DNA of 64,000 nt, taken from a bacterium (GTDB lineage Bacteria; Zhuqueibacterota; Zhuqueibacteria; Residuimicrobiales; Krinioviventaceae). Below the pieces are notes generated by a model. That model saw nothing but the letters and a program-made list of their open reading frames with translations, ran no database searches and was not told the origin of the DNA. Of the stretch, positions 1 to 23,210 are shown one piece after another (within the stretch, counting starts at the first letter, position 1; every line of letters starts with the position of its first letter). A program made the translations under genes and the position numbers. Where the stretch lies: contig OY843751.1 of assembly GCA_963693055.1 (NCBI GenBank), positions 576,001 through 640,000 of the forward strand. The letters are read 5' to 3'.

Positions 1-318
1 TTCAACGGATGCATCATCAATGTTTCCATTTTCATCCAATGTCAGTGTGGGTACACCGTTTGATTCAACCAGACCAACACCTACCAAACCGCCGTAAGAA
101 CCTGCTTGTACAAACAAAGCGCCATCACGTTGTTCGATGGTTTGGTTTTGTACATCTTGTGCAGGATAAAAAATCCAACCTACATCTGTAAGAGGAGCAA
201 CTTCATCATCATCAAAATGATCTTCCCACAGAATTGGATATTCTTGTGCGTTAATTGGAGCAATCATGGCAAACAAAAGAATTGCCAAGATTGAAGTCGT
301 TAATAGCCGTTTCATCAT
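1..318 (-). CDS. Secreted protein, N-terminal part (runs off the window start); fourth gene of the TBDR-PorV cassette
   Basis: Not in the ORF track. Open frame from ATG at 318 (GGGAGG SD upstream) to position 1: MMKRLLTTSILAILLFAMIAPINAQEYPILWEDHFDD..., with a Sec signal peptide ending INA-Q. Confidence 0.85.
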   Translation of the reverse strand, partial: MMKRLLTTSILAILLFAMIAPINAQEYPILWEDHFDDDEVAPLTDVGWIFYPAQDVQNQTIEQRDGALFVQAGSYGGLVGVGLVESNGVPTLTLDENGNIDDASVE

Positions 319-389
319 AGAACCTCCCTAATTAATTGAGTTATGTTACTTGTGATTTATTATTGTATTATACAACTTTTTTTAAACAA

Positions 390-1430
390 TTAAAACGATA
401 TTTGCAAAGAAATTCGATTTATATCACTAAAATATTCTGCACTGGTATAAGCATAATCTACAATTGCGTTATAGTTAGAATACGAGAATTTTACACCTAC
501 ACCAAATGTTGCTGATTCAACATCGTGATTGAATTTATAACCACCACGAATTGCAAAGCGTTGCAGATAGAGAATTTCCGTACCGAGATGAACACGTTCC
601 GTATAATCATTTGGATGGATAGCATCAACTGCTACGTTGATATCCAGGTCTTCATTACCTTCCTGAAAGATTTCGGCAACGTCCATTGCCATACCTATCC
701 GTAAATAGGTTGGCAGACTGAATTCTTCGTACCAATATGCCATATCCTGGGAAAGGTTTTGCATAGTCATAGCAACAATTAATCCTTTCCAACCAACGTT
801 ATAAACAGTACCAAAATCTAAACCCCAGTTGTTCATGGCATAATCTTCAAAGGTGTAATATTTAACTTCATTTTCATCGTCACCTTCATTATCAACCTTG
901 TATACATATCGGGCTTCTCCAAGGTCTTCATGCAGGTGTTTTAGCTTGATACCAAATGAGAATTTATCACTGATACGTCTGGCATAAGAAAAACCAATGG
1001 CATAATCTTCAACACCAATGTCTCCGGTGGTTATAAAGCCTCTATAATTTTGAGATTGTGGTACAATCTGTGTTCCCATAATTTCACCAAAATCCATATA
1101 GGTCAAATCAACACCAAAGGCGCCCCAGTTTTCTGTAGAATAAACCATAGCGGTTCCGTACAGTTTGGTTTCAACCAACCAGCTTACCTGATTAAAGATG
1201 ACGGAAACGCCTTTAATGTCCGCGGTAACCGCGGGGTTGTGCCACATACCATTAATACCCTGAACTGATGCTGTTGATGCATCGCCCATTGCAGACTCGC
1301 GGGCGCCCATACTGATTGCAAGATAGGTCATACCGCTTTGTCCTACTTTTTTCTTTCTGGCCCACCCGTTATTGGGCAATGTTATTAGCATTGCTGCTAT
1401 AATTATCAAAATGTATATTTTTCTAGTCAT
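390..1430 (-). CDS. PorV/PorQ-family outer-membrane beta-barrel
   Basis: Start revised to MTRKIY (GGGAGA SD). Motifs GARESAMG, WHNPA, FAIRGGYKF and DYAY, and a terminal Phe, as in PorV/FadL-like barrels. Confidence 0.8.
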   Translation of the reverse strand: MTRKIYILIIIAAMLITLPNNGWARKKKVGQSGMTYLAISMGARESAMGDASTASVQGINGMWHNPAVTADIKGVSVIFNQVSWLVETKLYGTAMVYSTENWGAFGVDLTYMDFGEIMGTQIVPQSQNYRGFITTGDIGVEDYAIGFSYARRISDKFSFGIKLKHLHEDLGEARYVYKVDNEGDDENEVKYYTFEDYAMNNWGLDFGTVYNVGWKGLIVAMTMQNLSQDMAYWYEEFSLPTYLRIGMAMDVAEIFQEGNEDLDINVAVDAIHPNDYTERVHLGTEILYLQRFAIRGGYKFNHDVESATFGVGVKFSYSNYNAIVDYAYTSAEYFSDINRISLQISF

Positions 1431-1444
1431 ATTATTGTCTCCCA

Positions 1445-3568
1445 TTATCGAATAACGACAAATTTGCCGGTTGCAGAACCCAATGGAGTACCTAAACGGT
1501 CCCATCCTTCGATGTAGTAAAAATAGACACCACTTTTTATGGTTTGCCAGCTATCTGTGATCTGGAACCACATTTCATCGGCAGATTCGTTAACTGACAT
1601 GCGATTATCTGGGTTGGGATGGTGCAGGGTTTTTACCAGATCACCATGTACCGTAAAAATTCGGATCACAGCTTTTGCGGGAAGCCCTACAAAATAAAGC
1701 TGGTCTTCCGGGCGAGCCCCCATTCCCTGATCGATGAGATAATCTTCTTTAAATGTACCGCCATACTCTAGTCCACCAGCATGGAAGGGATTGGGAACAA
1801 CGTAGATAGAATCCATATTAGTATGTGCCGCTTCAAAGGGAACCACAGCATATTGATAGTTTCTGTTTGAAAAATGGCTGGATTCTACCGATTTCCCGGG
1901 AAACAAACTGCTGCTGTTTTGTGTGCCGTCATCAAATGCTGTAACATAATAGTAATAACTTTTACCCCGTTCAACATTACGGTCTGTAAATGTATTGGTA
2001 ATGGGATTACCGGAATTTCCACCACATTCGTATATTAGGTTATATATATTATTAAAATCACCAACTGCACGATATAAACGATATCCTGAAAAATCATATA
2101 TACCCGTGTCAATATCATTTTCAGGAAGATTGTCACGATGAGAGAAATTTATTGCATCGTAATCGCCATAATACCATTCAATATCAATTTTACCTGGTCC
2201 GGCATCCAATTTTAAATTGGGTGATTCCGGTCCGTCAGGTACCGCCGTATAACCATTCTGCCAGGTCCATTCGGCTCTTGAAACAATCTGATGTAAAGAG
2301 TCTTTGCCGGTAGCGAGAAAAGCGTTTTTAGCCGCATCACCAGTTAAACCATTAAATTCTAAATTTCCTTCAAACCAGTCTTTACCATATTGAATTGCAA
2401 GTTTTCTGTCTACAGCGCCAACCGCTTCAAATATGACAATATGAATATCTTCACCAAAGGGGATGTTATAGGGCCCAAAAGACATCAAACAATGTGGCTC
2501 TTGAACTTCAGGGTGCCAAGGATAGCTGTATTCCAGCATATCTGAACCCTGACTCTGTTTGCCACTACTCAAATCACTATACATGGTAAGCTCATCCGAG
2601 TTGGCATGTGTATGGGTTTTAGCTTTGGGAAGGAAATTAACGGTAGCGGGTTGAGATCGGTCATCCTCTGGATTGTTGTAATCTGTGTCTGCATGTAAAA
2701 CACCATAGGAAACATATTGTGGTGCCAGAAATTCTCCACTGGTTTCAGAAGGATCACCGGTGTCGTCAAAAGTTCGGCTGTTATTGTCTCCATCATATAC
2801 ATACCAGAAACCACGTAAAGAATCACCCTGCTGGTTGCCATAATAATGACACCAGTCATCACGTTGGCCTCCCATCGCTTCATGACCTTTATCGCCTGAA
2901 GGAACAAATACTCGCCAGAGTCCTAAATAGACATCTGTAAGGTTTTGCCCATCAAGCTCAATGGTACTTTCATTATCATCTACATTACCGGTATTGGTAA
3001 AGGTGTATTCTGAAATGATATAACTGTCATGCTTGCGGTTAGCAAAGGCATAACTTGATCGTTCCACCTGAATACCTACATCAGTATACCATTTGGATGT
3101 GATCAATTCATCTGCTTCAAGATTTTTGTCTCTTTTGTATGCGCTTGATCGATTGTCAACAATACGTTCTTCTGTGTCACCGTTTACAATAACTAGAGGA
3201 AGTCGTTGTCTTACAACTTTGCGATTGCTTCTTGATCGTGTAAACAAAACACCGGCTGCATCGCCATTTTGGTAACCACCTTCAGAAACATAGGCTGATT
3301 TAAACTCGCCCAGTTTATTGGTCCAGTTTTTTACACCAATCCAGTGACCAATAGCTTCCATGTTTTTACCTGTGTGCAGGTAAAAATCACCGCCAGGATA
3401 GTTCATCTGGCTTTGCAGGGGAGCATATGTAGGCATGGTTCCGGTTTCAAAACGGGTTACCCACAAACGACCGATTTCATGACTTTTGATCTGTGCCAGC
3501 GCGGGTGTTAAAATTCCCAAAATCAGTAACACCAGGCACAAAAATATATAATTTATTTTTTTATTCAT
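1445..3568 (-). CDS. Secreted protein with FN3-like domain and T9SS type-A CTD-like C-terminus
   Basis: Start revised to MNKKINY (GGAGG SD); signal peptide; FSGYRLYRA...YYYYVTAFD FN3-like segment; C-terminus VVPNPF...IRIFTVHGDLVKTL...SGVYFY...GKFVVIR. Confidence 0.75.
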   Translation of the reverse strand: MNKKINYIFLCLVLLILGILTPALAQIKSHEIGRLWVTRFETGTMPTYAPLQSQMNYPGGDFYLHTGKNMEAIGHWIGVKNWTNKLGEFKSAYVSEGGYQNGDAAGVLFTRSRSNRKVVRQRLPLVIVNGDTEERIVDNRSSAYKRDKNLEADELITSKWYTDVGIQVERSSYAFANRKHDSYIISEYTFTNTGNVDDNESTIELDGQNLTDVYLGLWRVFVPSGDKGHEAMGGQRDDWCHYYGNQQGDSLRGFWYVYDGDNNSRTFDDTGDPSETSGEFLAPQYVSYGVLHADTDYNNPEDDRSQPATVNFLPKAKTHTHANSDELTMYSDLSSGKQSQGSDMLEYSYPWHPEVQEPHCLMSFGPYNIPFGEDIHIVIFEAVGAVDRKLAIQYGKDWFEGNLEFNGLTGDAAKNAFLATGKDSLHQIVSRAEWTWQNGYTAVPDGPESPNLKLDAGPGKIDIEWYYGDYDAINFSHRDNLPENDIDTGIYDFSGYRLYRAVGDFNNIYNLIYECGGNSGNPITNTFTDRNVERGKSYYYYVTAFDDGTQNSSSLFPGKSVESSHFSNRNYQYAVVPFEAAHTNMDSIYVVPNPFHAGGLEYGGTFKEDYLIDQGMGARPEDQLYFVGLPAKAVIRIFTVHGDLVKTLHHPNPDNRMSVNESADEMWFQITDSWQTIKSGVYFYYIEGWDRLGTPLGSATGKFVVIR

Positions 3569-3587
3569 TATTTCCTCCACGTTCCGT

Positions 3588-6578
3588 TTACCTGTGAATC
3601 CGTAAACCAAATACATAAGATTTATACTCACCCCAGTATACATTGTCGCTCCAGGTCCTCAGTATCTTGGGGTTAGTCAGCTCGTCCGTACCTAATTCGT
3701 CAAGTCTGCCCGAGTTCCACAGATCATCATAATAATCTTCTTTGCTGTCTCCACCGGGAATATTGCGGAACTTGGAGTGTAGAATGTTACTTACATCCAT
3801 ATAGAATTCCATGTTGGTGTTGAACATAGAGAATACTCTTGAAAAGCGCATGTTTGCCCAATATTGATTCAATTCCTTGAACCAGACATCCGGGTGTTCA
3901 TCATTAAAGCTATCACGCGGATGTTTCCTTCGTGTTCCGCCTTTATAAAAGACCTGGAAGCTAAGGTTTGAGTTGGAAACCAGCGGAAACTTGCCGATTT
4001 TGGGGCCCCAATCTGCCGGCGCAGAAAGTGTGATTACACCACGAGCATCTGGCTGGATGTAATTGATATTGGAACGCGGAACCCCCCACAAAACACCATT
4101 ATTACCAATGTTGGGATCATCAGTGATAATTGGGATATTGCTCAGATTTGGAATCTCGAGGTTGGCTTCACTTTCTTTAATAAAGTTGTAATTGAACCAA
4201 CCGGTAACAAAACGCCCCATGGGTTTACGCAATTCAATTTCAATACCGCGAATTTCTTTATAGTTGTTTTGGTCATACCATTCCAGTACCAGAGTTTGAT
4301 CTCCGTGGGCATAAACCATTCCACTTTCGTATCCGTCATAATCTTTGTAAAAAGCACCAAAGTGCAATTGCAGATCGTATTTGATTCCAAAATCCGCACC
4401 CAACTCGTATGCAATATTGGTTGGAAAATCAATATCCGCGTTACCCATGAATGTAACACGGGGTAGAGACCAGTCAACCATGGTGTGGTAAAGCACTTCA
4501 CTTGCCGCTACCTGAACAAAGTGACCATAGTTGAAATATATTTTACTTCGGTCAGACAGGGGGTGCGATATACCCACACGTGGACTGAAATAGACTTTGG
4601 GTTTGGGTCTAAACGTAGGGTATTTATTGTTTACATAATCGTTGAACAGATCTTCATTGGTATCATACGTGAGAGCTTGATGTGGATCGGGACGGTCGCA
4701 ATTTACATCAAAATAATCCATACGTAAACCAATGTTGGCAATCATACCTTGAAATTCCACTTTGTCTTGAACAAATGCTGCCATTTCAAGTGGGAAAACA
4801 TGGTAATTGTGAGTAAACAGTTGTGTTGAATCACCTTCGTGCCAGTGTGTACGATCTTCAAGCATATCATTGTACGAGAATTCCAAACCTGCTTTTAACT
4901 CGTGAGCAGGATGAAATTGGCTGGTCAATTCAGCTTTTAAAGTGGTAGCGTTGTGGTGGGACTTGTCCCATGTGTCTGCACCGCCATACATTTCGAATTC
5001 ATTATAGGGATCTTCTACACCATTTGCCCTTGATATCCAACCGGATTGTGGATCATAATATAAACGTCCGTGAAAATAGCGTCCGTCTTCTGCTTTTGCT
5101 GAATCGGGGCGACCAATGTTCCAGTTGATGTTCAAATGGCTAAGTTTTATTTCATAAAATGTGGTAGGTGATAGTGTGTGTGTAAATGTTGCACCAGCAA
5201 CCGTTGTATAGCGGTTTAATATTGGACGATAGAACGGATAGTACATGTATTCGCCACGAAGGTCTGTGCCATCATATTCAACACGGTCTTCATGACTCCA
5301 ACTGCTGTTAGATTTACCTTCGGTGACAGATCTGACTTCTGAGTACATATTGTTCAGGGTCAGTTTCATGTTGGGAGAAAGGGTGTTAACTATTTTTAAA
5401 GATCCTATCCGTTCATCATAATACCGGCGTGATTGCGGGTATTGAAAAGGTCTGTACTCAAATTTCCCACCGAGTAAAAAGTTTGATTTCCAGGGTAAAA
5501 TGGGGACCCTGCCAGACAAGGTTGCGTCAATATTGTGGCCGGTTTTATTACCGTATTCAACCGGGCGATGACGCCATTGCCATAGTTCAAATGCTTCTTC
5601 TGCTGACAGGTCGTTGCTGGGATCCGGATCATTTGCAAGTTCTTCTGCGTAAGCATTCCAACCGATCCAGGTATATTCATCATCGTGAATACCGTCTGGT
5701 ACCAGAATAGAACCGCCATCAAATGCGTTAGCACCAGCCTTTAATAACCATTCGGTACGATAGGCATGATCATATTTATCGCGACCTACGTGGCCTTTTT
5801 GAGCAGGAGTTAACTGGTAATCCAGTGAAAAGTGTAAACGGTCTTCAGGATTTTTAGTAATCACATTGATCACACCTGAGCGGGACTGGCCATATTCCGC
5901 GTTAAACCCGTTACGCATAAGTTTAATCTCTTCTACCGCACCGGGTTGAATAGAGATTACAGGACGGTTAAATTTTTGGTCAAACATATCCATACCGTCC
6001 ATTAAAAAGCCCACTTCCATTGCGTCACCTTCACGGATTTTGATCTCGCCTTCCATAATGTTTCCACTGACGCCTGACTGCAGGCTGATAATTTCTTCTA
6101 CACGATTGGCAAACGGAGTGTTCTGGTAATCACTCTCTGAAATATAACTTTCTGTACTGGCAACATCCGTTTTGATGATATCACGTTGGGCTTGTACAAC
6201 AACTTCGCCGCCTATATCAAGTACTTCCTGGTCCAGATCAAAATTGATTGTAGTTGTACGGTCAACACTTACATGAACGTTCTGTTTCAGTTGTTTACCG
6301 TAACCAATGATAGATGCAGTGACCGAATAGGTACCTGGCGGTACCTGCAGAATGATAAATTCACCGTCAATGTTGGATGCTGCACCAATTGAACCATCAA
6401 AAGGAATCTCTTTTCCTTCCTGCCAAACATGACTAATAAAGATGTTGGCACCTGGCAGTCGTGCACCGTCAGCCACATCTTTGATTGTACCACGGATCTT
6501 ACCAGTTACACCTCCAAATACTGATAGAGGTAGAATTATGAATAACAGTACATATTTCTTGATCCACTGATATTTCAT
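3588..6578 (-). CDS. TonB-dependent receptor with N-terminal carboxypeptidase-regulatory-like domain
   Basis: Start revised to MKYQWI (GGAGA SD); GKIRGTIKD...LPGANI...GTYSVTASIIGY; plug motif GFNAEYGQSRSGVINVITK; barrel motifs SPRVGISHP and YFNYGHF. Confidence 0.92.
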   Translation of the reverse strand: MKYQWIKKYVLLFIILPLSVFGGVTGKIRGTIKDVADGARLPGANIFISHVWQEGKEIPFDGSIGAASNIDGEFIILQVPPGTYSVTASIIGYGKQLKQNVHVSVDRTTTINFDLDQEVLDIGGEVVVQAQRDIIKTDVASTESYISESDYQNTPFANRVEEIISLQSGVSGNIMEGEIKIREGDAMEVGFLMDGMDMFDQKFNRPVISIQPGAVEEIKLMRNGFNAEYGQSRSGVINVITKNPEDRLHFSLDYQLTPAQKGHVGRDKYDHAYRTEWLLKAGANAFDGGSILVPDGIHDDEYTWIGWNAYAEELANDPDPSNDLSAEEAFELWQWRHRPVEYGNKTGHNIDATLSGRVPILPWKSNFLLGGKFEYRPFQYPQSRRYYDERIGSLKIVNTLSPNMKLTLNNMYSEVRSVTEGKSNSSWSHEDRVEYDGTDLRGEYMYYPFYRPILNRYTTVAGATFTHTLSPTTFYEIKLSHLNINWNIGRPDSAKAEDGRYFHGRLYYDPQSGWISRANGVEDPYNEFEMYGGADTWDKSHHNATTLKAELTSQFHPAHELKAGLEFSYNDMLEDRTHWHEGDSTQLFTHNYHVFPLEMAAFVQDKVEFQGMIANIGLRMDYFDVNCDRPDPHQALTYDTNEDLFNDYVNNKYPTFRPKPKVYFSPRVGISHPLSDRSKIYFNYGHFVQVAASEVLYHTMVDWSLPRVTFMGNADIDFPTNIAYELGADFGIKYDLQLHFGAFYKDYDGYESGMVYAHGDQTLVLEWYDQNNYKEIRGIEIELRKPMGRFVTGWFNYNFIKESEANLEIPNLSNIPIITDDPNIGNNGVLWGVPRSNINYIQPDARGVITLSAPADWGPKIGKFPLVSNSNLSFQVFYKGGTRRKHPRDSFNDEHPDVWFKELNQYWANMRFSRVFSMFNTNMEFYMDVSNILHSKFRNIPGGDSKEDYYDDLWNSGRLDELGTDELTNPKILRTWSDNVYWGEYKSYVFGLRIHR

Positions 6579-6703: not shown

Positions 6704-6721
6704 TAAGCAAACGTTTGCCTA
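6704..6721. promoter_or_regulatory. LacI/GalR-family operator
   Basis: TAAGCAAACGTTTGCCTA, with a perfect core palindrome GCAAACGTTTGC and central CG, about 125 bp upstream of the TBDR start. Confidence 0.7.
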
Positions 6722-7086: not shown

Positions 7087-8352
7087 TTAAAGATTTGATG
7101 TTCCGCGTTTGGATTTAAACCATAAAAGAAAAGTAAGTGCTGTTCCCAGAGTAGCCACTATGACCAGCATCATAAAAATGGGTACCAGATCGTGATTATA
7201 GGTTTCGTAGAGAAAACCAATGATTTCTTCCTGAAAGATAGGGCCAATTGAGCCAATGCCATTTATAATGCCTGCGGCAGCAAGTGCGCTTTTTTTAGAT
7301 GTGACATCAATAGCGCCAACTCCGGAGAGTAGTGAGTCAGGACCGTAAAGCATGAATCCGGCAAGTCCCATAGAGATGGTAAAATAGAGAACGCTGTTTG
7401 CACCCAAAGTATACATGATAAAGAATGAAACGGTCATGAAAAATAACATCAAGAATGCAATCAATGAGCGTTTACCTTTGAATAATTTGTCTGACGCCCA
7501 GCCCGCAAAAATAACACCTGCAAAACCGGTCAAATCAAATATAGTGGACAAGTATCCCGCTTCATCACCCTGTAGTGCAAAGTTTTTATTCAGGAAAAAG
7601 GGTGCCCAGCTCCAAAGAGAATATCTCAGGAATTTAATGCAAAAGTAAACCATTCCCATAAGAACAACTGTAAAGATGACGTCTTTTGACCATTTTTCAT
7701 CTTTATCGTTTTCTTCTGTTTCTTCTTCATCATCTTCTTTTAAAGGTTCAAGACCAGCATCTTCCGGCTTGTTGGGATGAATTAAAAGAACAACCGCCCA
7801 AACAACGAGAAGTACAATTGATGCACCAAAAAATGACCATCTCCAACCTGCCAGGCCCAAAAGAAATGCGGCAAATGAACTTGCTGCCAGTGAACCGACC
7901 TGGTAGCAGGTAGACCAAACGCCTAATATGGTACCGCGTTGTTTGCGTTTATACCAGAATGCCAAACTACCTATGCAGCCCGGCCAACCGGTACCCTGAG
8001 CAAGACCATTTAAACTCAGGAATAACATTATAGTCCAATAACTGTTGGATATTCCGAACATGAAATTACAAAATAATGAAATTCCCATTCCAATGAGTAA
8101 TAACAGCTTGGGACCCAGTTTTTTACCGAAAAATGCACTGGAGAATTGACCTACCATGTAGAAAACAAGGTACGCGGTCCCCAGATGTGCCAGGTCAATG
8201 GCAGTCATTCCCAGATCACCAGCCATTGCACTTTTTACTACATAGAAAGCTTTACGACAAAAATAGTACCCGGCATAAGAAAGCCAGGTAGCGGCAAATA
8301 TTTTAACCTGCCAGGGCCGATAAGCATTTTTAATTGATACTTGCTCTTTCAT
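7087..8352 (-). CDS. MFS transporter, organophosphate:Pi antiporter (GlpT/UhpT-like) family
   Basis: YAGYYFCRK, QGTGWP, RGTILGVWST and YGP motifs; about 12 hydrophobic segments. Confidence 0.85.
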   Translation of the reverse strand: MKEQVSIKNAYRPWQVKIFAATWLSYAGYYFCRKAFYVVKSAMAGDLGMTAIDLAHLGTAYLVFYMVGQFSSAFFGKKLGPKLLLLIGMGISLFCNFMFGISNSYWTIMLFLSLNGLAQGTGWPGCIGSLAFWYKRKQRGTILGVWSTCYQVGSLAASSFAAFLLGLAGWRWSFFGASIVLLVVWAVVLLIHPNKPEDAGLEPLKEDDEEETEENDKDEKWSKDVIFTVVLMGMVYFCIKFLRYSLWSWAPFFLNKNFALQGDEAGYLSTIFDLTGFAGVIFAGWASDKLFKGKRSLIAFLMLFFMTVSFFIMYTLGANSVLYFTISMGLAGFMLYGPDSLLSGVGAIDVTSKKSALAAAGIINGIGSIGPIFQEEIIGFLYETYNHDLVPIFMMLVIVATLGTALTFLLWFKSKRGTSNL

Positions 8353-8364
8353 AGGCTCTGCCCT

Positions 8365-9213
8365 TTATTTTTTTTGCATTACCTGCTTGGTTAACCAATT
8401 TTTAAATTCAAGTTCTCGAATATCATCATCTAATAGGTCTTCATCAATTGCAAGTTTCCAGCGCAGGTCTTTAGTATCATCCGATTTGACAATCTCGTCA
8501 TATTGTGCTACCAGTTCTGTCATGGCCTCATGGCTTTTGAAATAGTTTTCGCGGGTCAGTTTTTCCTCACGAGCTTCAATGAGCCTGGCCATTTCATAAA
8601 GGTTATACTCGGGATGGTATTGTGTAGCCCAGAATGTGCCCTTTTTGTATGTTACGCTGACTGCCTGTACATATGTAAAGCTGTTTCCTGCCAGGCGCGT
8701 TGCACCTTCTGGTAGACCTGTAATATGATCGTCATGGCTGATGAATCCGTCAAACGCCATAGGTTTTCCTTCATACATGGGGTGGGACTTGCCTTCGTCT
8801 GTAAGGTAAACCTTGCGGGCAACACCCATTTCACGACCTTTGGGGTTGGGTTCTACCTTGCCGCCTGCAACATAAACAGCAAGCTGTGCGGCCCAGCAGC
8901 TGCCAAATTGCGGAATACCGGCTTCGTACGCCATGTTTGTAATTTTGATCATTGTGGCAACCCGTTCATCATCCGTATGATAAACTGTAAGGTTGCAGCC
9001 CGGCCATAAAACGCCATCATAATTTTCTAAATTATCGGGGATAATTGTTTCCGTATCGCTGGTATATAAAATGTCATATTGGGCATTGGGCATGTATTTC
9101 AGCAATAAATTGGCATAGAGCTGCCCTGCCAGTGTCATTCCTACTTGGTCGAATTGGTCTCTACTTTTTTGGGGATATCCGTCCAATATTAAAAATCGCA
9201 TAGAATCTGCCAT
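8365..9213 (-). CDS. Class I glutamine amidotransferase-like protein (possible gamma-glutamyl hydrolase)
   Basis: Nucleophile elbow GSCWAAQ, SHDD, and catalytic QYHPE. Confidence 0.85.
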   Translation of the reverse strand: MADSMRFLILDGYPQKSRDQFDQVGMTLAGQLYANLLLKYMPNAQYDILYTSDTETIIPDNLENYDGVLWPGCNLTVYHTDDERVATMIKITNMAYEAGIPQFGSCWAAQLAVYVAGGKVEPNPKGREMGVARKVYLTDEGKSHPMYEGKPMAFDGFISHDDHITGLPEGATRLAGNSFTYVQAVSVTYKKGTFWATQYHPEYNLYEMARLIEAREEKLTRENYFKSHEAMTELVAQYDEIVKSDDTKDLRWKLAIDEDLLDDDIRELEFKNWLTKQVMQKK

Positions 9214-9215
9214 TA

Positions 9216-9971
9216 TTATTTCGCCTGTTTTTTAGAGTTAAATATTTCTGTCAATTGTGAGTAATCATTGAATTGTGCATCTGCCTGGGTATTTTCGCTG
9301 CCCCGATCAATCGCGGCAGTACACAATATTGCACCCATTCCCGCTTTTTTCGGTCCCAGAATATCGTTATGTTCACGGTCACCAATATGAACGATCTCTT
9401 TCAATTCAACACCCAGCCCTTTTGATGCGGCATCAAAGACTGATGGATGCGGTTTAGAATGACCAACCTCATCAGAGAATACAAAGAAATCAAAATATTG
9501 GGCCAAATCTTCGCCTGCCAGTAATTCACGTAATGCACGACCAGGACTAAAGATGGCGTCCGAAATAACACCCAATTTGTATTCTTTGCTTAGCTGCTTT
9601 ATTGCATCATGAACTCCCGGAATAAAGTTGGGTCTAAATTCCAGTTCCATTTCTTCATGCAGTTTTACCAATTCGTCCATTTCATTGGCAGGTAATTCTA
9701 CACCCAGGCCTTTCAATAAGACCGAAAGACGTTCATGTACAGACCAAGTTACATGGGAATCGTGCCAGACTTTTCTAAACGCGGCATCGGTTGTATTGTA
9801 GGCAATGTCTATAATATCCCGCGAAACGGATTTGTGTTTATTTACAAATTGCTCTACAAGGTTGCGCCGTTCAACAGGTTTTGTGGGGCGATTTGCAGCT
9901 TTGCGTTTGGGTTCGTCTGAATCATCAATAAAGACCGTATCCCACAAATCAAATGTAATTGCTTTTATCAT
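9216..9971 (-). CDS. HAD-superfamily hydrolase/phosphatase
   Basis: Motif I FDLWDT, motif II ISD, KP and HIGD..ND. Confidence 0.9.
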   Translation of the reverse strand: MIKAITFDLWDTVFIDDSDEPKRKAANRPTKPVERRNLVEQFVNKHKSVSRDIIDIAYNTTDAAFRKVWHDSHVTWSVHERLSVLLKGLGVELPANEMDELVKLHEEMELEFRPNFIPGVHDAIKQLSKEYKLGVISDAIFSPGRALRELLAGEDLAQYFDFFVFSDEVGHSKPHPSVFDAASKGLGVELKEIVHIGDREHNDILGPKKAGMGAILCTAAIDRGSENTQADAQFNDYSQLTEIFNSKKQAK

Positions 9972-9985
9972 AAATGACCTTTTTT

Positions 9986-11140
9986 CTATTTCAGCATATT
10001 GGTTATCAGTTCAACTATATCTCCTTTTTCCACTTTACGTGGATTTAAAGGACAGCAGGGATCTTGTAGTGCGTAATCTTCTATTGCCTGAGCTTTATCC
10101 AGTGGAACATTCAGCGGTTTCAGGTCAGTTGGCATTTCCAATGAGATCAGCCAGTTTTTGATTGCATCAAGCACGGCATATGCATCTTTGTCTGTATTTA
10201 ACATGGTACCCAGAGACGCGAGCTTTTTATTGACTTGCGGATCTGATGCATTAAATTTCATAACCTCAAGCAAAACAGCCGCATTGGCAAGACCATGGTG
10301 CGCATCAAACATAACTCCCAGTGCGTGTGCAATAGAGTGGTTTAATCCCAATCCTTTCTGAAATGCTGTAGCGCCCATAGCAGAAGCCATCAGCATATTG
10401 CCGCGTGCGGCAATGTCATTTCCATCTTTGACTGCAACGGGCAAGTGCTTGATACACATTTCCAAACCTTCTTTGGCAATGCCATCAGCAAAGGGATGAA
10501 AAACATCCATAATGTATGCTTCAAGGTTGTGCACAAATGCATCAACACCCGTAGCGGCAGTAAGCCATGCCGGCATGGATACTGTCAGTTCAGGATCAAG
10601 TACCGCAATGTCTGGCATGAGATAAGGGGAAAAGATGATTGTTTTGGTATTGTTTTTCAATATGGTGATAACGCTGCTGCGACCCACTTCGCTGCCAGTA
10701 CCTGCAGTTGTGGGAACCGCGTAAAATGGAGGCATGTTGTTTTGAATGTATTTGTCTCCACCTTTCATGTCATCATATTTTTCAAGTGGACCCTCATGAG
10801 TAGCCATGCATTTGATGGTTTTGGCTGCGTCAATGGGTGAGCCACCACCCAAGCCTACTATGAATTCAGCTCCACAAGATTTATAAACCTCTGCGCCATT
10901 GTATACATTTTCATCAGTGGGATTTGATTTAACATCGCTAAAAATCTCTATTTCAATACCGGCAGCTTTAAACAGTTCTACAAGTTTTGCCGGAGTTCCT
11001 ACTTTTTCAATGCCTTTGTCTGTTACCAGCAGGCCTTTTTTTACACCAGTAGCTTTGATTGTATTAACCATATCTTTGACGGCACCCGGGCCGTATTCAA
11101 TTTTGGTTGGAAAATTGTATGTATGTCTTGATGTTGGCAT
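9986..11140 (-). CDS. Iron-containing alcohol dehydrogenase
   Basis: GGGSPIDAAK, PTTAGTGSE, DAFVH, HSIAH and HHG metal ligands. Confidence 0.93.
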   Translation of the reverse strand: MPTSRHTYNFPTKIEYGPGAVKDMVNTIKATGVKKGLLVTDKGIEKVGTPAKLVELFKAAGIEIEIFSDVKSNPTDENVYNGAEVYKSCGAEFIVGLGGGSPIDAAKTIKCMATHEGPLEKYDDMKGGDKYIQNNMPPFYAVPTTAGTGSEVGRSSVITILKNNTKTIIFSPYLMPDIAVLDPELTVSMPAWLTAATGVDAFVHNLEAYIMDVFHPFADGIAKEGLEMCIKHLPVAVKDGNDIAARGNMLMASAMGATAFQKGLGLNHSIAHALGVMFDAHHGLANAAVLLEVMKFNASDPQVNKKLASLGTMLNTDKDAYAVLDAIKNWLISLEMPTDLKPLNVPLDKAQAIEDYALQDPCCPLNPRKVEKGDIVELITNMLK

Positions 11141-11191
11141 TTTTCAACTCCTGTATATACGTTATGGTTATATAAAAATAAATAACTGAAA

Positions 11192-12580
11192 TCAAACTTT
11201 AACGCGCAGGTGAAAAGATTTTGGACGGGTTAAATGTTCGTAACCCAGTTGTGATAATGTGCATCCTCGTCCTGTATCTTTAACGCCTACCCATGGGAGA
11301 TAGGGATCCAGGTAATCACAGCGATTCATAAACAGGGTGCCGGTATCTACTCGGTCACCGAGTTCAAGAGCTCTGTCTTCATCCTGGGTCCAGATAGATG
11401 CCGTTAATCCGTATGGACTGTCGTTCATCAGTTCCAAAGCTTCTTCATCACTCTTGACTTTCATAATGCCAACAACAGGGCCAAAGCTTTCTTCAACCAT
11501 CACATCCATCGTGTGATTAACATTTACAAGAACCTGGGGTGCAAGATAGTTGGTACCCAGTTGAGTTTCCGGGAACAGTGCGGGATCTATTAATGCTTTG
11601 GCGCCGGCTTTGACAGCAGCGTCTATGTGGTTACGTACCAGGTCTGCACCGCTTTTTTTAGCTACCGGGCCCAGAGTCGTTTCTGAATCGAGGGGGTTAC
11701 CCAGTTTGTATTGTTTTGTTAATTCTGCAAATTGTTCAATAAAGTCATCGTATAATGTTTCATGTACGTAAATACGTTCAATGCCGCAGCAGGATTGGCC
11801 TGAATTGTAAAAAGAACCATCAACAAGATTCTCTACTGAAAATTTCAAATTCGCATCTGCAGCTACATAAGCGGGATCTTTGCCACCCAATTCTAATCCT
11901 ACTCCTACAAAACGTTCGGCAACTACTTTTTGGATATTGTGTCCGCCACCAACTGAACCGGTAAACGCAACAAAATCCACTCTAGGATCACGGATAACCT
12001 GTGCTGTAGATTCATGATTTAGATGCAGGAATTGGAATAATCCTTCGGGCAGGCCGGCTTTTTTGAATGCGTCAGCGAACCGCTCGGCAACCAGAGGAGT
12101 TTGAGCTGAATGTTTTAATACAATAGCATTGCCGGCTAATAAACCGGGAACAATTGAATTGACAGCAATGAGGTATGGATAGTTCCAAGCGGGAACAACA
12201 AAAACGGTTCCCAGGGGTTCATGGCGAATAAACCGGTTAAAGCCTTCCTTTTCGCCAACAAAGATGTCTGCCAAGGATTTTTGGGCCAGGTCAAACATGC
12301 CCAATGTGCGTTCTTTGGTTCCGTTAACTTCATTAACTCCATAACGTATGGGTCTGCCCATTTGCCATGCAAGTTCTGTACTTATACGTTCGGTATCCTC
12401 TACAAACGCGTTGATAAATTTTTCAATATATGATTTTCTTTCAGTCAGCGATACAAATTTCCATTCTTTTTGAGCTTTTTTTGCTTTATCCAGCGTTTGG
12501 TCAATATCTTGAGGGCCATGTTGTGCGCATTCCACATACACTTTACCATCAACTGGTGAGATGACTTGAATAGCCTGCAT
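11192..12580 (-). CDS. Aldehyde dehydrogenase family protein
   Basis: PAWNYP, FTGS, LELGGKDP, GQSCC and EESFGP. Confidence 0.95.
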   Translation of the reverse strand: MQAIQVISPVDGKVYVECAQHGPQDIDQTLDKAKKAQKEWKFVSLTERKSYIEKFINAFVEDTERISTELAWQMGRPIRYGVNEVNGTKERTLGMFDLAQKSLADIFVGEKEGFNRFIRHEPLGTVFVVPAWNYPYLIAVNSIVPGLLAGNAIVLKHSAQTPLVAERFADAFKKAGLPEGLFQFLHLNHESTAQVIRDPRVDFVAFTGSVGGGHNIQKVVAERFVGVGLELGGKDPAYVAADANLKFSVENLVDGSFYNSGQSCCGIERIYVHETLYDDFIEQFAELTKQYKLGNPLDSETTLGPVAKKSGADLVRNHIDAAVKAGAKALIDPALFPETQLGTNYLAPQVLVNVNHTMDVMVEESFGPVVGIMKVKSDEEALELMNDSPYGLTASIWTQDEDRALELGDRVDTGTLFMNRCDYLDPYLPWVGVKDTGRGCTLSQLGYEHLTRPKSFHLRVKV

Positions 12581-15835: not shown

Positions 15836-18800
15836 ATGACAAAAAAAATGAAAAAAGATGCAAATGCTTTGGATGCCAAACGGCTGCAACTTGCCCTTGA
15901 AGCCGCCAAAGGAGCAGTTTTTTATTATGATTTAATAAATGATATTATTGAATGGGACGCAGCCAATTTTGAATTATTGGGTTTTGATAAAGAAAGCATA
16001 GCCAATACTCGAAAAGATTGGGAAAAAAGAATCCATCCTGATGATTTATCAAAAGTTATAAAAGCGATGGATGAAGTGTTCGCTGATAAAGAAAAAGATT
16101 CCTTTAATGTCGAATATCGTATTATTCTTCCGGATAATACGATAAGAAATTTCAATGCCAGGGCCTGGATCGATAGGGATGAACATGGGAAACCCCTTGC
16201 TTTCGCTGGAGTACATTTTGATATTACGGAACAAAAGCTTGCCGAGCTTCAACTAAAAACATCTGAGGAAAGATATCGTGTGCTTTATGAAGGTATTAAC
16301 GACGCTGTATTGCTGGTTGACGAAGATGGATATTTTGATTTCAATACCGCTGCATGTGAAATGTTTGGATATACTGCAGAAGAAATGAGAAAACTGCACA
16401 TGCGTGATCTTTCTCCCGATACACACAAAGAAACTCCCGAATATATAGCCTTGCAAAGAGAAAACTATATCAAAACCCTTGAGCAAGGTCCGCAGCAATT
16501 CGAGTGGGTTCATCAAAAGAAAAATGGTGAACTTTTTCAAGTAAGTGTTGTAAGCAGAATGATTGAAATTAACGGTAAAATGATCATGCAGGGCGTTGTT
16601 CGTGATATTTCTAATCATAAAAAATTGGAAAGAGAACTTTTACAAAGACAGGATGAACTTCAACGTGCTCAGGAAATTGCCAAGTTTGGGCATTGGATTT
16701 ATGATGTGAAAACTGAAACGTTTACAGGTTCAAAAGAAGCATTACGTCATTATCAATTAAAGAACGAAAATGCAAATTTGTACGAGATCGCAGAAAAAAT
16801 TGAACCCAGTTTTAGAAAAATGGTATATCGTCAATTTAAAGAATGTATGAATTCAGGGACTCGGTTTAATCATGATTTTCAAATCATTCTTGAAGATGAG
16901 AGCAAAATGTGGATCAATTCTGTGGCATATCCCGAGTTGGATGAACAGGGACAGGTTGTCAAGATTTTGGGCACCACAATGGACATTACCAAACGTAAGC
17001 AAAATGAACTTGCAATTGAACAGCATTCACAATTTGAGCGTATTATCAATCGTCTATCATCAAATTTAGTAGATCTAAAAAATCTTGATGAAAAGATAGA
17101 GAATATACTGGCAACAATTGGTGAATTTGTTAATGTAGACAGGGCTTATGTTTATTTGGTTAGTAAGGATGGAACTACTATTGAGAATTCACATGTGTGG
17201 TATTCGAGTAGATCAAAATTAAAAGATAAAATTACTGCAATAATAGATCCCGCAAAGTCCCTGCCATGGTTCTGGTCTTTAATAAAAAACGGGAAAACCG
17301 TGCACATCCCTTCTATAAAGGATTTTCCGGAAGAAGCAAAATCGGAAAAGCAATTTTGGTTAGACAAAGAATTTAAAGCATTTTTAGCACTTCCTATGAT
17401 CAATAATAAAAGACTGATTGGTTTTTTGGGTTTTGCGGATGAAAAATATGAAAAGACTTGGGATGAGAATGCTATAGCATTGTTGCGAATAACAGCAGAA
17501 ACTTTTTCTCGCGCTTTGGAACAAAAGCGTATGTATGATTCACTAAGAAGAAGTGAGGAACGTTTCAGGCGTTTGATTAAAGATTCTCCTGTTGCCATGG
17601 TTGTTAGCGATAATAGTATGTTTGTTATTGATGTAAATAGTCAATTTGAAAAATTAACAGGGTATACCAGAAGAGAATTGTCTCATGAAAAGATATGGTG
17701 GGACCTGCTGGTACCCAATCCGCAATACCGGTTCCATATCAAGCAATGGTGGGATAAACTTGTTAATGATGCTTTGGATAATAAAAATTCAATTACCGAA
17801 CCTATTGAGGTTGTATTTACTTGTAAGGATGGAGAGAAACGTGATATTTTGATAAATGTGGCGTTTACCGGTGATTTCAAATTAATTGTTCTTCAAGATC
17901 ATACAAAGCAAAGACAGGGTGAAGCGCTTTTACTGGCCCAACGTGATCTTGCAATTGCGCTTGGACAGAGTGTAGGTTTGGATGAAACATTAAAGATATG
18001 CACAGAAGCCGCAATCAATAATTCTTTTATGGATAGTGGTGGAGTATATCTTGTTATTCCTGCAAGTAAGAGCATTCAATTACATTTTTCTATGGGTTTG
18101 TCAAAAGATTTTTGTAACGCTGTATCTTATTTTGATGCAAGTTCACCAAATGTAAAAGCCATTATGCGGGGAAAGCCAATTTATGACCATTATTCTAAAT
18201 ATACGGGCCCGGATGATGAAATTGCTAAAAATGAGCAATTGAAAGCATTTGCAAATATACCGATTACCTACCATGATAATGTTATAGGTTGCATGAATGT
18301 TGCATCACATCTTTTAGATACGGTACCTGAATATTCAAGGCTCATACTTGAAACCATTGCAGGCCAAATGGGACAGGCAATAATGCGTGTGCGTGCATTA
18401 GATACATTACGGGAACGTGAAGAAAATCTTAAAATGTTTTTCGAGTCCGTTAATGATTTTTTGTTTGTATTGGATGAACGTGCATCAATTTTACAAATTA
18501 ATCGTGCAGTTACTCAACATTTGGGATATACAGAATTGGATATCATTGGTGAGTCAATTTTGACACTGCATCCTCCTGAATTAAAAAATATTGCTTCGGA
18601 GATTATTCTGGATGTTTTGTCTCAAAATCGGTTTTTGTATGATCTTCCGCTAATGAATAAATCTGGAGACGAAATTCCAGTTGAAACCAAAATAACAGCA
18701 GGGCAATGGAATGGAAGAACTGCCTTTTTTTGTGTGAGTCGGGATGTGACGGAAAGAAAACGTGCGGAACAGGCGTTAATGCGCACCAGTTCTTTTTTGA

Positions 18801-20341
18801 AAACAGTAATTGATGAAGCTCCATTTGGTATAGAAATTTGTGAAGGGGACAAGCATGATTGGGAATTTACAATAATTAACAAAGAAGCTCAACGTATTTT
18901 AGGCACAACGGCTGAACAGCATCGAGGGATAGGGAAGAGAAATGGAAATTTTTTAAAAGCAGAAAGCTTTACATGGCAATTTTTGCATTTGGATGGGAGT
19001 GTATGTAATTCTTCACAATTCCCATTGTTTATTACTTTAGAAAAAGGAAGAACAGTAACAAATCAGGAATTAATTATAAAACAATCTGATAACAGCCAGA
19101 TGATTGTTATTATTAACGCTTCACCTATCTTTGATGATGAGGGTGGAATCATAGGAGGTCTTGTTTCTTATACTGATATTTCAGAACGAAAAAAAGCAGA
19201 ACGGGAATTGTTAGATTCTCGTGAACGTCTTGCAAAGGCAGAAGAAATAGGGCATTTAGGCAGTTGGGAGATTGATCTTGTTACGGGTGAGAGTAAGTGG
19301 TCAGATGAATTTTTGAGGATTTGTGGTTTTGAACCCGGTAAAGGTGAAATGACAAAAGAGTTAAGTGCAGAAATAACTCACCCTGAAGACAGATATCTGG
19401 TAGACGAAGAAATGAAACGGGTTCTGCTAGAAAAAGATAAATATAATGTAGAGAAACGAATTATACGTCCTGATGGTGAGATCAGATATACTCATTCTGT
19501 GGGCAGAGTTGTTTTGGATGATGCAGGTAAACCTGTAAAAATTATAGGTTCATTCCTGGATATTACAGATAGAGTGCTGTCAGAACAGGAAACCCTTCGT
19601 CTGGAAAGGCAAATACAAGAAGTTCAAAAGCATGAGAGCCTGGGTGTTTTAGCTGGTGGTATTGCCCATAATTTTAACAACGCATTATTGGCGGTGTTAG
19701 GAAATCTTGAATTGGCTCGTTATAATATAGATTCAGGAGACAAAGCATTTAAAAATATTGTGAATGCAGAATCTGCTGCTGACCGGGCTGCCGAGTTGAG
19801 TCGATTAATGTTGGTTTATGTTGGACAAGGTCAGGAACACTATGTAAAATTACCCATGTCTGATTTGTTAGTAGAAACCTGTCAACGTTTTAAATCTGAG
19901 GTACCGGAAAATATTAAAATCCACTGTTCTTATCCTAACGATAATGATTTTAGAGTACATGGTTCAAAAATGTTGTTGAAAGAATCTTTACAACACCTGA
20001 TAACCAATGCAATTGAATCCATTAAAGATGGAAATGGTGAGATAAGTATTACGATTGAAGAAAAAATGCTTAAAGATAAAACATTGCAAATGAGTAAAGT
20101 ACTTGAAAAACCCAAAGAAGGAAAGTTTGTCTGCCTGACGGTTAAAGATACTGGCAGCGGAATGAGTAAAGAAACCTTTGAACGTATGTTTGAACCCTAC
20201 TTTACCACAAAATTTATTGGAAGAGGATTAGGTCTGGCAGCAGTGCTGGGAATTGTGCGAGGCCATAGAGGAGCCATTTTTGTAAAAAGTGAGGAAGGAG
20301 AAGGAACAGAAGTAATGGTAGCTTTGCCATCCATTGAATGA
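15836..20341 (+). CDS. Cytoplasmic multi-PAS/GAF sensor histidine kinase without receiver domain
   Basis: Repeated PAS/PAC (HPDD, HPED, DITER), two GAF-like segments, H-box LAGGIAHNFNN and ATPase DTGSGM..FEPYFTTK..GRGLGL. Confidence 0.93.
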   Translation: MTKKMKKDANALDAKRLQLALEAAKGAVFYYDLINDIIEWDAANFELLGFDKESIANTRKDWEKRIHPDDLSKVIKAMDEVFADKEKDSFNVEYRIILPDNTIRNFNARAWIDRDEHGKPLAFAGVHFDITEQKLAELQLKTSEERYRVLYEGINDAVLLVDEDGYFDFNTAACEMFGYTAEEMRKLHMRDLSPDTHKETPEYIALQRENYIKTLEQGPQQFEWVHQKKNGELFQVSVVSRMIEINGKMIMQGVVRDISNHKKLERELLQRQDELQRAQEIAKFGHWIYDVKTETFTGSKEALRHYQLKNENANLYEIAEKIEPSFRKMVYRQFKECMNSGTRFNHDFQIILEDESKMWINSVAYPELDEQGQVVKILGTTMDITKRKQNELAIEQHSQFERIINRLSSNLVDLKNLDEKIENILATIGEFVNVDRAYVYLVSKDGTTIENSHVWYSSRSKLKDKITAIIDPAKSLPWFWSLIKNGKTVHIPSIKDFPEEAKSEKQFWLDKEFKAFLALPMINNKRLIGFLGFADEKYEKTWDENAIALLRITAETFSRALEQKRMYDSLRRSEERFRRLIKDSPVAMVVSDNSMFVIDVNSQFEKLTGYTRRELSHEKIWWDLLVPNPQYRFHIKQWWDKLVNDALDNKNSITEPIEVVFTCKDGEKRDILINVAFTGDFKLIVLQDHTKQRQGEALLLAQRDLAIALGQSVGLDETLKICTEAAINNSFMDSGGVYLVIPASKSIQLHFSMGLSKDFCNAVSYFDASSPNVKAIMRGKPIYDHYSKYTGPDDEIAKNEQLKAFANIPITYHDNVIGCMNVASHLLDTVPEYSRLILETIAGQMGQAIMRVRALDTLREREENLKMFFESVNDFLFVLDERASILQINRAVTQHLGYTELDIIGESILTLHPPELKNIASEIILDVLSQNRFLYDLPLMNKSGDEIPVETKITAGQWNGRTAFFCVSRDVTERKRAEQALMRTSSFLKTVIDEAPFGIEICEGDKHDWEFTIINKEAQRILGTTAEQHRGIGKRNGNFLKAESFTWQFLHLDGSVCNSSQFPLFITLEKGRTVTNQELIIKQSDNSQMIVIINASPIFDDEGGIIGGLVSYTDISERKKAERELLDSRERLAKAEEIGHLGSWEIDLVTGESKWSDEFLRICGFEPGKGEMTKELSAEITHPEDRYLVDEEMKRVLLEKDKYNVEKRIIRPDGEIRYTHSVGRVVLDDAGKPVKIIGSFLDITDRVLSEQETLRLERQIQEVQKHESLGVLAGGIAHNFNNALLAVLGNLELARYNIDSGDKAFKNIVNAESAADRAAELSRLMLVYVGQGQEHYVKLPMSDLLVETCQRFKSEVPENIKIHCSYPNDNDFRVHGSKMLLKESLQHLITNAIESIKDGNGEISITIEEKMLKDKTLQMSKVLEKPKEGKFVCLTVKDTGSGMSKETFERMFEPYFTTKFIGRGLGLAAVLGIVRGHRGAIFVKSEEGEGTEVMVALPSIE

Positions 20342-20526
20342 TATCTATGCTTAATAGATGCAAAGTCTCTTGAAAATAAACACTTGAATTGTTCAAGGGT
20401 TTATATTAAATTTATTTAGTAACTCAACCATTCTGCTTTCAAAATGGTACTATAAATGTAACCAACATATCTTGATTCTCTACGTTTGAGTATAACGGTT
20501 CTATTAAACAAATTTATAAAAATCAA

Positions 20527-20892
20527 ATGAAAAATAGTTTCCTAGTAGAAGAATACCCTGGGTATATTGTATTTCGGGTATCTGGCCAAGATAGTTTACA
20601 ATACTCTATGGATTATTGGAAAAGAGTTGGCCAAATTTGTAACGAAAAAAAAGTTTATAAAGTTTTGATAGTGGAAGATCTGCAAGGTCAAATTTCCATG
20701 TCTGAAATGTATGAACTTTGTGAGGCATTACCTCATTTTGTTTTGGGTTTAGACATTGCTTTTATAGATAATGATCCTGAACATTTATATGATAATTTAT
20801 TTGGTGAAACGGTTGCAAGAAACCGGGGGGTAAACATAAATGATTTTAGCAACGAAAAAGAAGCTATAACATGGTTGTTAGAAGCTGATTAA
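20527..20892 (+). CDS. Small hypothetical protein, SpoIIAA/STAS-like
   Basis: 121 aa alpha/beta pattern ending FGETVARNRG...F....EA..WL. Confidence 0.6.
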   Translation: MKNSFLVEEYPGYIVFRVSGQDSLQYSMDYWKRVGQICNEKKVYKVLIVEDLQGQISMSEMYELCEALPHFVLGLDIAFIDNDPEHLYDNLFGETVARNRGVNINDFSNEKEAITWLLEAD

Positions 20893-21035
20893 GATAAAGT
20901 AGAATGTTTAACAGGTTATCATTTTATACCAAGCCTATTTTTATTCTATAACTATTGCTATCTTTTACAATTTTGTTTGTATCAATCAGTATTTTTGTTA
21001 TTTTGAAATTGGTCATTAAAAAACAAGGAAACCAA

Positions 21036-23051: not shown

Positions 23052-23210
23052 GGAAGGGCAGGTTATTATTTTTACTGAACTAAAGTACGGTTGGTGTAGT
23101 AATTTTCCTAAAATTGAAAAAAATATATATCTTTAATGGTTGCGGCTCGTTTTTTGTTGTATTTTTAGAGTGTGCAATGATGTGTTTTGTGTAGTTTGAG
23201 GATGTTGTAA

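Follow-up and report, generated by a model that had tools for sequence, protein, structure and literature searches.

Which surface protein, if any, would work with a TonB-dependent transporter behind which no SusD gene is found? The question is raised by positions 1 to 6578 of the stretch analysed here, a 64,000-nucleotide window (contig OY843751.1, positions 576,001 to 640,000, assembly GCA_963693055.1) of a complete genome of the phylum Zhuqueibacterota, in which a transporter (T), a secreted partner without family annotation (P) and a barrel of the PorV/PorQ family (V) are encoded one behind the other. The original prediction, made from the DNA letters alone, saw here an uptake cassette in which type IX secretion system (T9SS) parts replace SusD, with a PorV paralog of its own holding the partner at the surface as binding partner or lid of the receptor. 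In this study, we report that the T-P-V set is a real and phylum-wide unit. With moderate confidence we read it as an undescribed variant of uptake of the type encoded by polysaccharide utilisation loci (PULs), in which P would serve as the lid of T. The features of the locus are as follows (CTD, C-terminal domain; FN3, fibronectin type III).

1..318, minus strand: 5' part of the fourth gene (full length 378 aa; whole gene L001:15182-16318), no domain annotation besides an ordinary type-A CTD
390..1430, minus strand: V, PorV/PorQ-family barrel, 346 aa, cassette clade (profile scores and tree)
1445..3568, minus strand: P, secreted partner, 707 aa, no family annotation, with predicted supersandwich, FN3 and variant CTD
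1448..1816, minus strand: P residues ~585-707, CTD of the cassette class (VVPNPF...GKFVVIR), by profiles nearest to that of PorZ
1859..2221, minus strand: P residues ~450-570, FN3-like domain (model and fold search; homologues named 'fibronectin type III domain-containing')
2234..3496, minus strand: P residues 25-445, predicted beta-supersandwich and helical linker (model and fold search)
3588..6578, minus strand: T, TonB-dependent transporter, 996 aa (Pfam domains, AlphaFold model and PDB fold matches)
6707..6718, no strand: perfect 12-bp palindrome, 129 bp 5' of T (motif scan)

The four co-oriented genes with short gaps that had been described were recovered as minus-strand open reading frames with Shine-Dalgarno-like starts, separated by 19, 14 and 71 bp. 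A gap of 508 bp lies upstream of T, and the fourth gene, which starts at 318, extends beyond the window end.

A transporter, partner and barrel set repeated across the phylum

T consists of a signal peptide, a CarboxypepD_reg domain, the TonB-box-like motif EVVVQA, a plug and a beta-barrel with long loops, the CarboxypepD_reg and Plug domains being Pfam matches. Its AlphaFold model was built from 75 sequences (mean predicted local distance difference test, pLDDT, 87.5), and the best PDB matches listed for it are TonB-dependent transporters, including SusC proteins. T itself falls outside the SusC equivalog, for it has no match to TIGR04056 and no gene of the genome lies above the cut-off of that model. 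The absence of a SusD gene behind the receptor held for the whole genome, in which PF07980 and PF14322 match nothing while a Bacteroides control was positive. Outer-membrane barrels usually end in an aromatic residue; T does not (window 3588-3605, ...GLRIHR), and its paralogs mostly end in Phe, Tyr or Leu.

The genome holds 12 loci with T, P and V, ten in the order T-P-V, one as T-V-P and one as P, a cargo gene, T and V; such repetition argues that the set is not due to chance. The T subfamily has 14 members in the genome, 12 of which are adjoined by P and V, and neither P nor V was found within three genes of any other receptor-like gene listed. Among eight homologous loci V stands behind P in all eight, and T stands ahead of P in all seven that reach that far. 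A profile of the last 270 residues of P gave 843 matches (median 12.5), spread over 57 of 60 further genomes of the phylum. From 150 listed matches we picked 60 and fetched the surrounding regions, a sample that was chosen by P match and leans to the short class. All three genes were present in 53 of the regions and in five more once these were extended (58/60); of the remaining two, one holds T and P with a divergent barrel and the other is cut by a contig end. The conservation of the triplet on which the original prediction depended is thus borne out by count. Six P genes that appeared to be orphans were not, since T and V lie further downstream of five and the sixth is cut by a contig end. 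Of four distant metagenome loci related to a homologue with a Rhodothermaceae label (36-37% identity), three gave T-P-V and one T-P up to the contig end. Two tandem P genes per T were seen in four regions (L054, L056, L057 and L078), three of one family with the order T-V-P-P and one with T-P-P-V.

A shared history of the three genes, which had also been anticipated, was found both within the genome and across the phylum. Correlations between the within-genome similarity matrices were 0.83 for T and the P body, 0.73 for T and V, 0.74 for the P body and V, and 0.30 for the CTD and V. FastTree trees were built from 67 triplets, eight T-P pairs without V being left out; 41 of 42 supported splits of the P body tree recur in the T tree, and those of V recur in 28 of 37 cases in the T tree and 27 of 37 in the P tree. 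Patristic correlations were 0.87 (T and CTD), 0.84 (T and V) and 0.73 (T and P body). By these trees T and P agree best of the three gene pairs. P lies directly behind a T in 55 of 73 cases, and seven tandem T-P pairs have no V of their own while all 75 complete T genes collected (in regions chosen by P match) have a P, so that T and P look like the tighter pair.

SusD is rare in the phylum, with 46 matches in 26 of the 60 relatives against 843 for P. Since PUL prediction relies on susC-susD pairs, the cassette loci of these genomes are invisible to it. A second SusD-less architecture was also observed in the genome, comprising six homologous TonB-dependent receptors of 970-1090 aa (g4053, g775, g1793, g231, g3214 and g1797; e.g. 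C1:305352-310250 and 2250649-2255363), five of which stand immediately ahead of proteins of about 550 aa that are related to one another and have an ordinary type-A CTD, with no PorV paralog.

The partner, its tail and the barrel

P has no Pfam or NCBIfam match, including none to the SusD families. Its AlphaFold2 model (pLDDT 91.6, from 121 sequences) is mostly beta. The "FN3 protein" of the original prediction does contain an FN3 domain, which makes up only its middle part; the main domain is the predicted supersandwich. Residues 25-445 resemble the N-terminal beta-supersandwich of glucoamylase, GH94 phosphorylases and GH116 (Z 18.6-17.9, root-mean-square deviation 3.3-4.1, 242-286 residues aligned; GH, glycoside hydrolase), the best match being 1lf6_A (Z 18.6, deviation 3.3, 242 aligned). 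SusD-like folds are absent from the fold matches listed, which by itself excludes nothing. A lipobox-like pattern occurs in 3 of 75 P partners. Homologues of P carry the labels KSB1, Calditrichaeota, Ignavibacteriales, Melioribacteraceae, Rhodothermaceae and Cyclonatronaceae, and in the Atlas P matches unnamed clusters only, most commonly from Ignavibacteriota, Fidelibacterota and Gemmatimonadota. The nearest relatives with a label are KSB1, to which the genome therefore probably belongs. The family comprises 1,297 representatives at E<1e-30, some of them FN3 matches only; the 150 best consist of 130 with a cassette CTD, 17 with an ordinary type-A CTD and three with FN3 repeats. When longer proteins were searched for fusions, one with an ordinary CTD turned up and neither T-P nor V-P was seen fused, which is weak evidence; local T and V profiles found no fused forms among the fetched proteins.

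The tail of P had been taken for a type-A CTD. That assignment did not stand, for the tail of the window copy has no match to the TIGR04183, PF18962, PorZ, PorU or CHU_C models. By local profile the genome encodes 233 ordinary CTDs, 12 of the cassette class and one borderline protein (g3343), and all 12 cassette-class CTDs sit in the 12 T-P-V loci. In leave-one-out profiles, with close pairs held out together, the held-out cassette CTDs scored 75-99 bits each and any other protein 57 at most; the CTDs, V's and P bodies of all 12 loci outscored the best non-cassette protein. Across 75 cassette CTDs there were weak matches only, to the PorZ model NF052228 in 59, TIGR04183 in 43 (best 1.3e-6), PorU in 29, CHU_C in 12 and PF18962 in four. 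Searched against the PDB, the cassette CTD profile matched PorZ best (5m11, E 1e-4) and PorU next. These domains are longer than ordinary ones (median 96 vs 83 residues, with the PNP motif as starting point), and the linker ahead of the CTD carries a TxVE-like motif in 1 of 66 cassette cases against 76 of 228 ordinary ones that could be scored, the cassette linker being without the acidic charge typical of ordinary cargo in this genome. Homology to the ordinary type is still evident (probability 96%). Judged by sequence profiles, the tail of P is a class of its own, closest to the uncleaved PorZ CTD and not of the standard type A. According to the available parts of PMC10947112 and PMC5562754, the CTDs of PorZ and PorU are uncleaved and are held by PorQ and PorV, respectively; the PorZ CTD is counted among neither the type-A nor the type-B CTDs, and PorQ is suggested to pick up PorZ from the translocon (see also the accessible text of PMC11285876).

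V met no Pfam or NCBIfam families other than those of PorV, and in particular none of PorP. It scored 165 bits against the PorV/PorQ family model NF033709 (cut-off 90) and stayed below the equivalogs, with 71 bits against 250 for PorV (NF033710) and 68 against 220 for PorQ (NF033711); the PorV2 cut-off was also not passed. The V profile matches the solved PorV 6h3i_F at 5.8e-27. The model NF033709 is passed by 22 genes of the genome, the best match being g2461, which lies elsewhere (311 bits). In the tree, a branch (88/90, not starred) separates the 12 cassette V's from 14 other paralogs, and all 12 genes of this clade sit in the T-P-V loci. Equivalog scores, leave-one-out profiles and the tree therefore agree with a locus-specific paralog, as foreseen, rather than the single housekeeping copy; as far as sequence tells, V is a cassette-clade paralog and not the housekeeping PorV. 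Further PorV paralogs immediately follow large CTD proteins, with no receptor, three having long C-terminal extensions of 606-976 aa (G000 C1, e.g. 5994833-6006332, 5256418-5263920, 6146637-6153236 and 3292239-3297017).

The core translocon of the T9SS, a point that the original prediction had asked to check, is present. The genome encodes SprA, two PorU over cut-off, a true PorZ whose gene lies apart from the cassette, and TonB C-terminal domains, and SprA occurs in 60 of 60 relatives. A search for the motor genes gave no genome match over cut-off for GldK and none for GldM, the GldM control also giving no signal; GldL and GldN were not searched. With more than 200 CTD proteins besides, this may be a T9SS without a recognisable motor.

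Proposed function and competing explanations

By precedent, P would be exported via the type IX translocon (SprA), and its tail would probably stay uncleaved and bound to V. V is very probably the dedicated carrier or anchor of P, and by analogy with PorQ and PorZ it could be both carrier and permanent anchor. P may then be the surface substrate-capturing partner of T, in the place of SusD; their co-inheritance suggests that P could touch T and gate or feed it, and that its supersandwich could bind substrate. The substrates are likely to be glycans for many copies.

Several known systems resemble parts of this arrangement. Like the cassette, SusC/SusD (RagA/RagB) PULs or utilisomes of Bacteroidota form paralogous loci in which a long TonB-dependent transporter has, directly behind it, a surface protein that diverges along with it, some copies having accessory lipoproteins, carbohydrate-active enzymes (CAZymes) and regulators besides. 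They differ in that T falls outside the SusC equivalog, P is mostly beta, without a lipobox and with a T9SS tail, and the anchor probably comes from a third gene, V; the cassette would thus work like SusC/SusD without being a member of that system. The lid mechanism of SusD is treated in PMC13543919, the available text of which makes no mention of T9SS. In the attachment complex of Porphyromonas gingivalis, PorQ-PorZ (and PorV-PorU) likewise place a PorV-family barrel beside a protein, in the cassette one with a PorZ-closest CTD, and by homology the V anchor would work in the same way; PorQ-PorZ, however, exists as one housekeeping unit that serves the sortase, whereas the cassette comprises 12 paralogous units each with a transporter, besides the separate true PorZ. 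Genetic linkage of cargo and carrier is shared with type-B CTD proteins and PorP/SprF (SprB-SprF, PG1035-PorP), the accessible parts of PMC12618676, PMC9143113 and PMC12635249 describing cargo that stays surface-anchored on dedicated linked carriers, some of which are shared (crosstalk). Unlike these pairs, V is of the PorV and not the PorP family, the CTD is not CHU_C or type B, PorE and a link to gliding are missing, and the transporter is the constant neighbour. BtuB-BtuG of Bacteroides B12 uptake offers a TonB-dependent transporter in stable complex with a non-SusD surface protein (PMC10404256, in the part available); BtuG is a lipoprotein without a T9SS tail or PorV-like anchor. The GH15, GH65, GH94 and GH116 enzymes share the fold of P residues 25-445 (Z 15-18.6) at 5-12% identity, and P is without their catalytic barrel. 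BamG is another FadL-family barrel that binds a surface protein (PMC12611786, excerpt). The original prediction knew of no characterised example; precedents exist for the anchoring principle (PorQ-PorZ, PorP/SprF), and the pairing with a transporter was found in no paper. No description of the T-P-V cassette was found in the literature searched, most subscription papers and supplements, which could list such loci, lying outside it, and a term search of the Zhuqueibacterota and Caldithrix genome papers found neither T9SS nor SusC.

Several observations weigh against P as the partner of T. The supersandwich-FN3 module also occurs in ordinary-CTD proteins (the 17 among the best 150), mostly fused to BNR or beta-helix/DUF1565 (e.g. 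P0248, P0257 and P0191), so that the module does not depend on the cassette tail and might function with no receptor. Two of the 14 T-subfamily genes, g171 and g3157, have no P or V nearby. Congruent trees are expected from co-duplication alone and thus indicate linkage rather than contact; V is shorter and noisier in trees; and the partial correlation of CTD and V falls to rho -0.09 once T is held fixed, which lends no support to strict cognate specificity of CTD and V. Without GldK or GldM over cut-off, the pulling of a carrier from SprA is left without explanation in this genome, extraction from the translocon requiring the GldLM chain (PMC10994853, available portion). Many genomes have both SusD and the cassette, and the negative trend between the two is weak (rho -0.23, p 0.08, kin not independent). 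The window copy has no adjacent CAZyme, and neither do 8 of the 12 loci among the neighbours scanned (48 of 71).

P on V might instead be a free-standing surface binding protein or adhesin, co-expressed with T and never docking, in the manner of SusE/F rather than SusD. The module in ordinary cargo and the two T genes without P would fit this, as would the tandem P genes placed behind V in one family and ahead of it in a fourth region; PorP-anchored type-B cargo are adhesins (PMC12618676, part). We consider it unlikely, because T and P are the most congruent and tightest pair, P usually stands directly behind T, and tandem pairs drop V and not P. That V is a private shuttle only, with PorU cleaving P for release or attachment to lipopolysaccharide like ordinary type-A cargo, appears improbable: the closest solved CTDs are those of uncleaved PorZ and PorU and the acidic linker of ordinary cargo is missing, which outweighs the two PorU genes, the weak TIGR04183 matches and the remaining homology to ordinary CTDs.

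We give slightly less credit still to P being a surface enzyme whose supersandwich, akin to those of mutarotases, epimerases or lyases, trims substrate on behalf of T. Galactose-mutarotase-like folds do match at Z about 12, and H292-A293-D294 is near-invariant among 121 close homologues. Over 75 diverse partners, however, H292 and D294 are less than 90% conserved and the near-invariant residues are mostly Gly, Pro or aromatic; moreover, the best fold matches are non-catalytic N-terminal domains, and the catalytic (alpha/alpha)6 barrel is missing from the model, in which four short-to-medium helices follow the sandwich, then FN3 and the CTD. Least probable of all, and very improbable in our judgement, is that T imports no nutrient for P and helps its export or assembly, or signals. 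PorF is a TonB-receptor-like T9SS component, and without motor genes over cut-off an alternative energiser would be needed; against this, a plug and a TonB-box-like motif are present in T, which diversifies locus by locus together with P, the 233 ordinary cargo have no private T, and catabolic genes and LacI regulators accompany several loci.

The transporter-partner reading of the T-P-V set, if true, would explain glycan import in abundant sediment and marine lineages of the Fibrobacterota-Chlorobiota-Bacteroidota (FCB) group, define a large unannotated protein family, and extend the T9SS dedicated-carrier principle to PorV-family barrels and a third CTD class. More tentatively, at a little under even chances, KSB1 and sister FCB phyla may run their main oligomer import via a third T9SS signal class, with a supersandwich lid tethered by a dedicated PorV-like barrel as an independent counterpart of SusC/SusD and a translocon without the known GldKLMN motor. 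In that case the triplet would be a marker for defining PULs in these uncultured phyla. Cultured relatives with homologues among Rhodothermaceae, Ignavibacteria and Calditrichota would allow tests.

Neighbouring genes and regulation

Among the neighbours scanned, GH or polysaccharide lyase (PL) genes mark 4 of 12 loci (GH13; GH28/GH43; PL10/GH28; GH2), and a LacI gene adjoins 4 of 12. Neither kind of gene lies next to the window copy, where an operator-like site is all that was seen. The neighbours of the window subfamily in 16 loci yielded no common substrate (37 of 78 scanned). The perfect palindrome upstream of T has four copies in the genome, against 0.3 expected by base composition, all of them intergenic (window 6707-6718; C1:2830430, 2830650 and 6097069), and two precede the operon of another cassette. 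We take it to be LacI-operator-like, and the gene behind one copy resembles nagB. From their positions, the copies could link the window cassette, a second cassette and this nagB-like gene in a possible amino-sugar regulon, and the window copy would probably be under a sugar-responsive repressor of the LacI type. A similar site occurs just upstream of T in 5 of 16 subfamily loci, against 12 of 63 other loci with a site in any intergenic position. Counts of promoter-like (33 vs 23.3 +/- 4.7) and terminator-like sites (9 vs 5.8 +/- 2.3) were uninformative.

The original prediction had placed two secreted proteins in the locus, P with a type-A tail and the product of the fourth gene; it is the latter that bears an ordinary type-A CTD and is cargo of that kind. 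Its orthologues stand behind V in 14 loci of the subfamily (most of them). Besides FlgD for its CTD, it gave no useful PDB sequence match, and its Atlas matches share fewer than 170 features and serve as leads only. In other subfamilies an IPT/TIG or NHL lipoprotein takes this place, IPT/TIG often standing behind V in relatives.

An operon upstream of the cassette (window 7087-12580, minus strand) encodes an organophosphate-type major facilitator superfamily transporter, a class-I glutamine amidotransferase-like protein, a haloacid dehalogenase-type (HAD) hydrolase, an Fe-alcohol dehydrogenase and an aldehyde dehydrogenase, and it stands beside the cassette only as far as the closest relative. 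Further along, at window 15836-27701, a GH127 gene is flanked by two 1,500-aa PAS/GAF histidine kinases.

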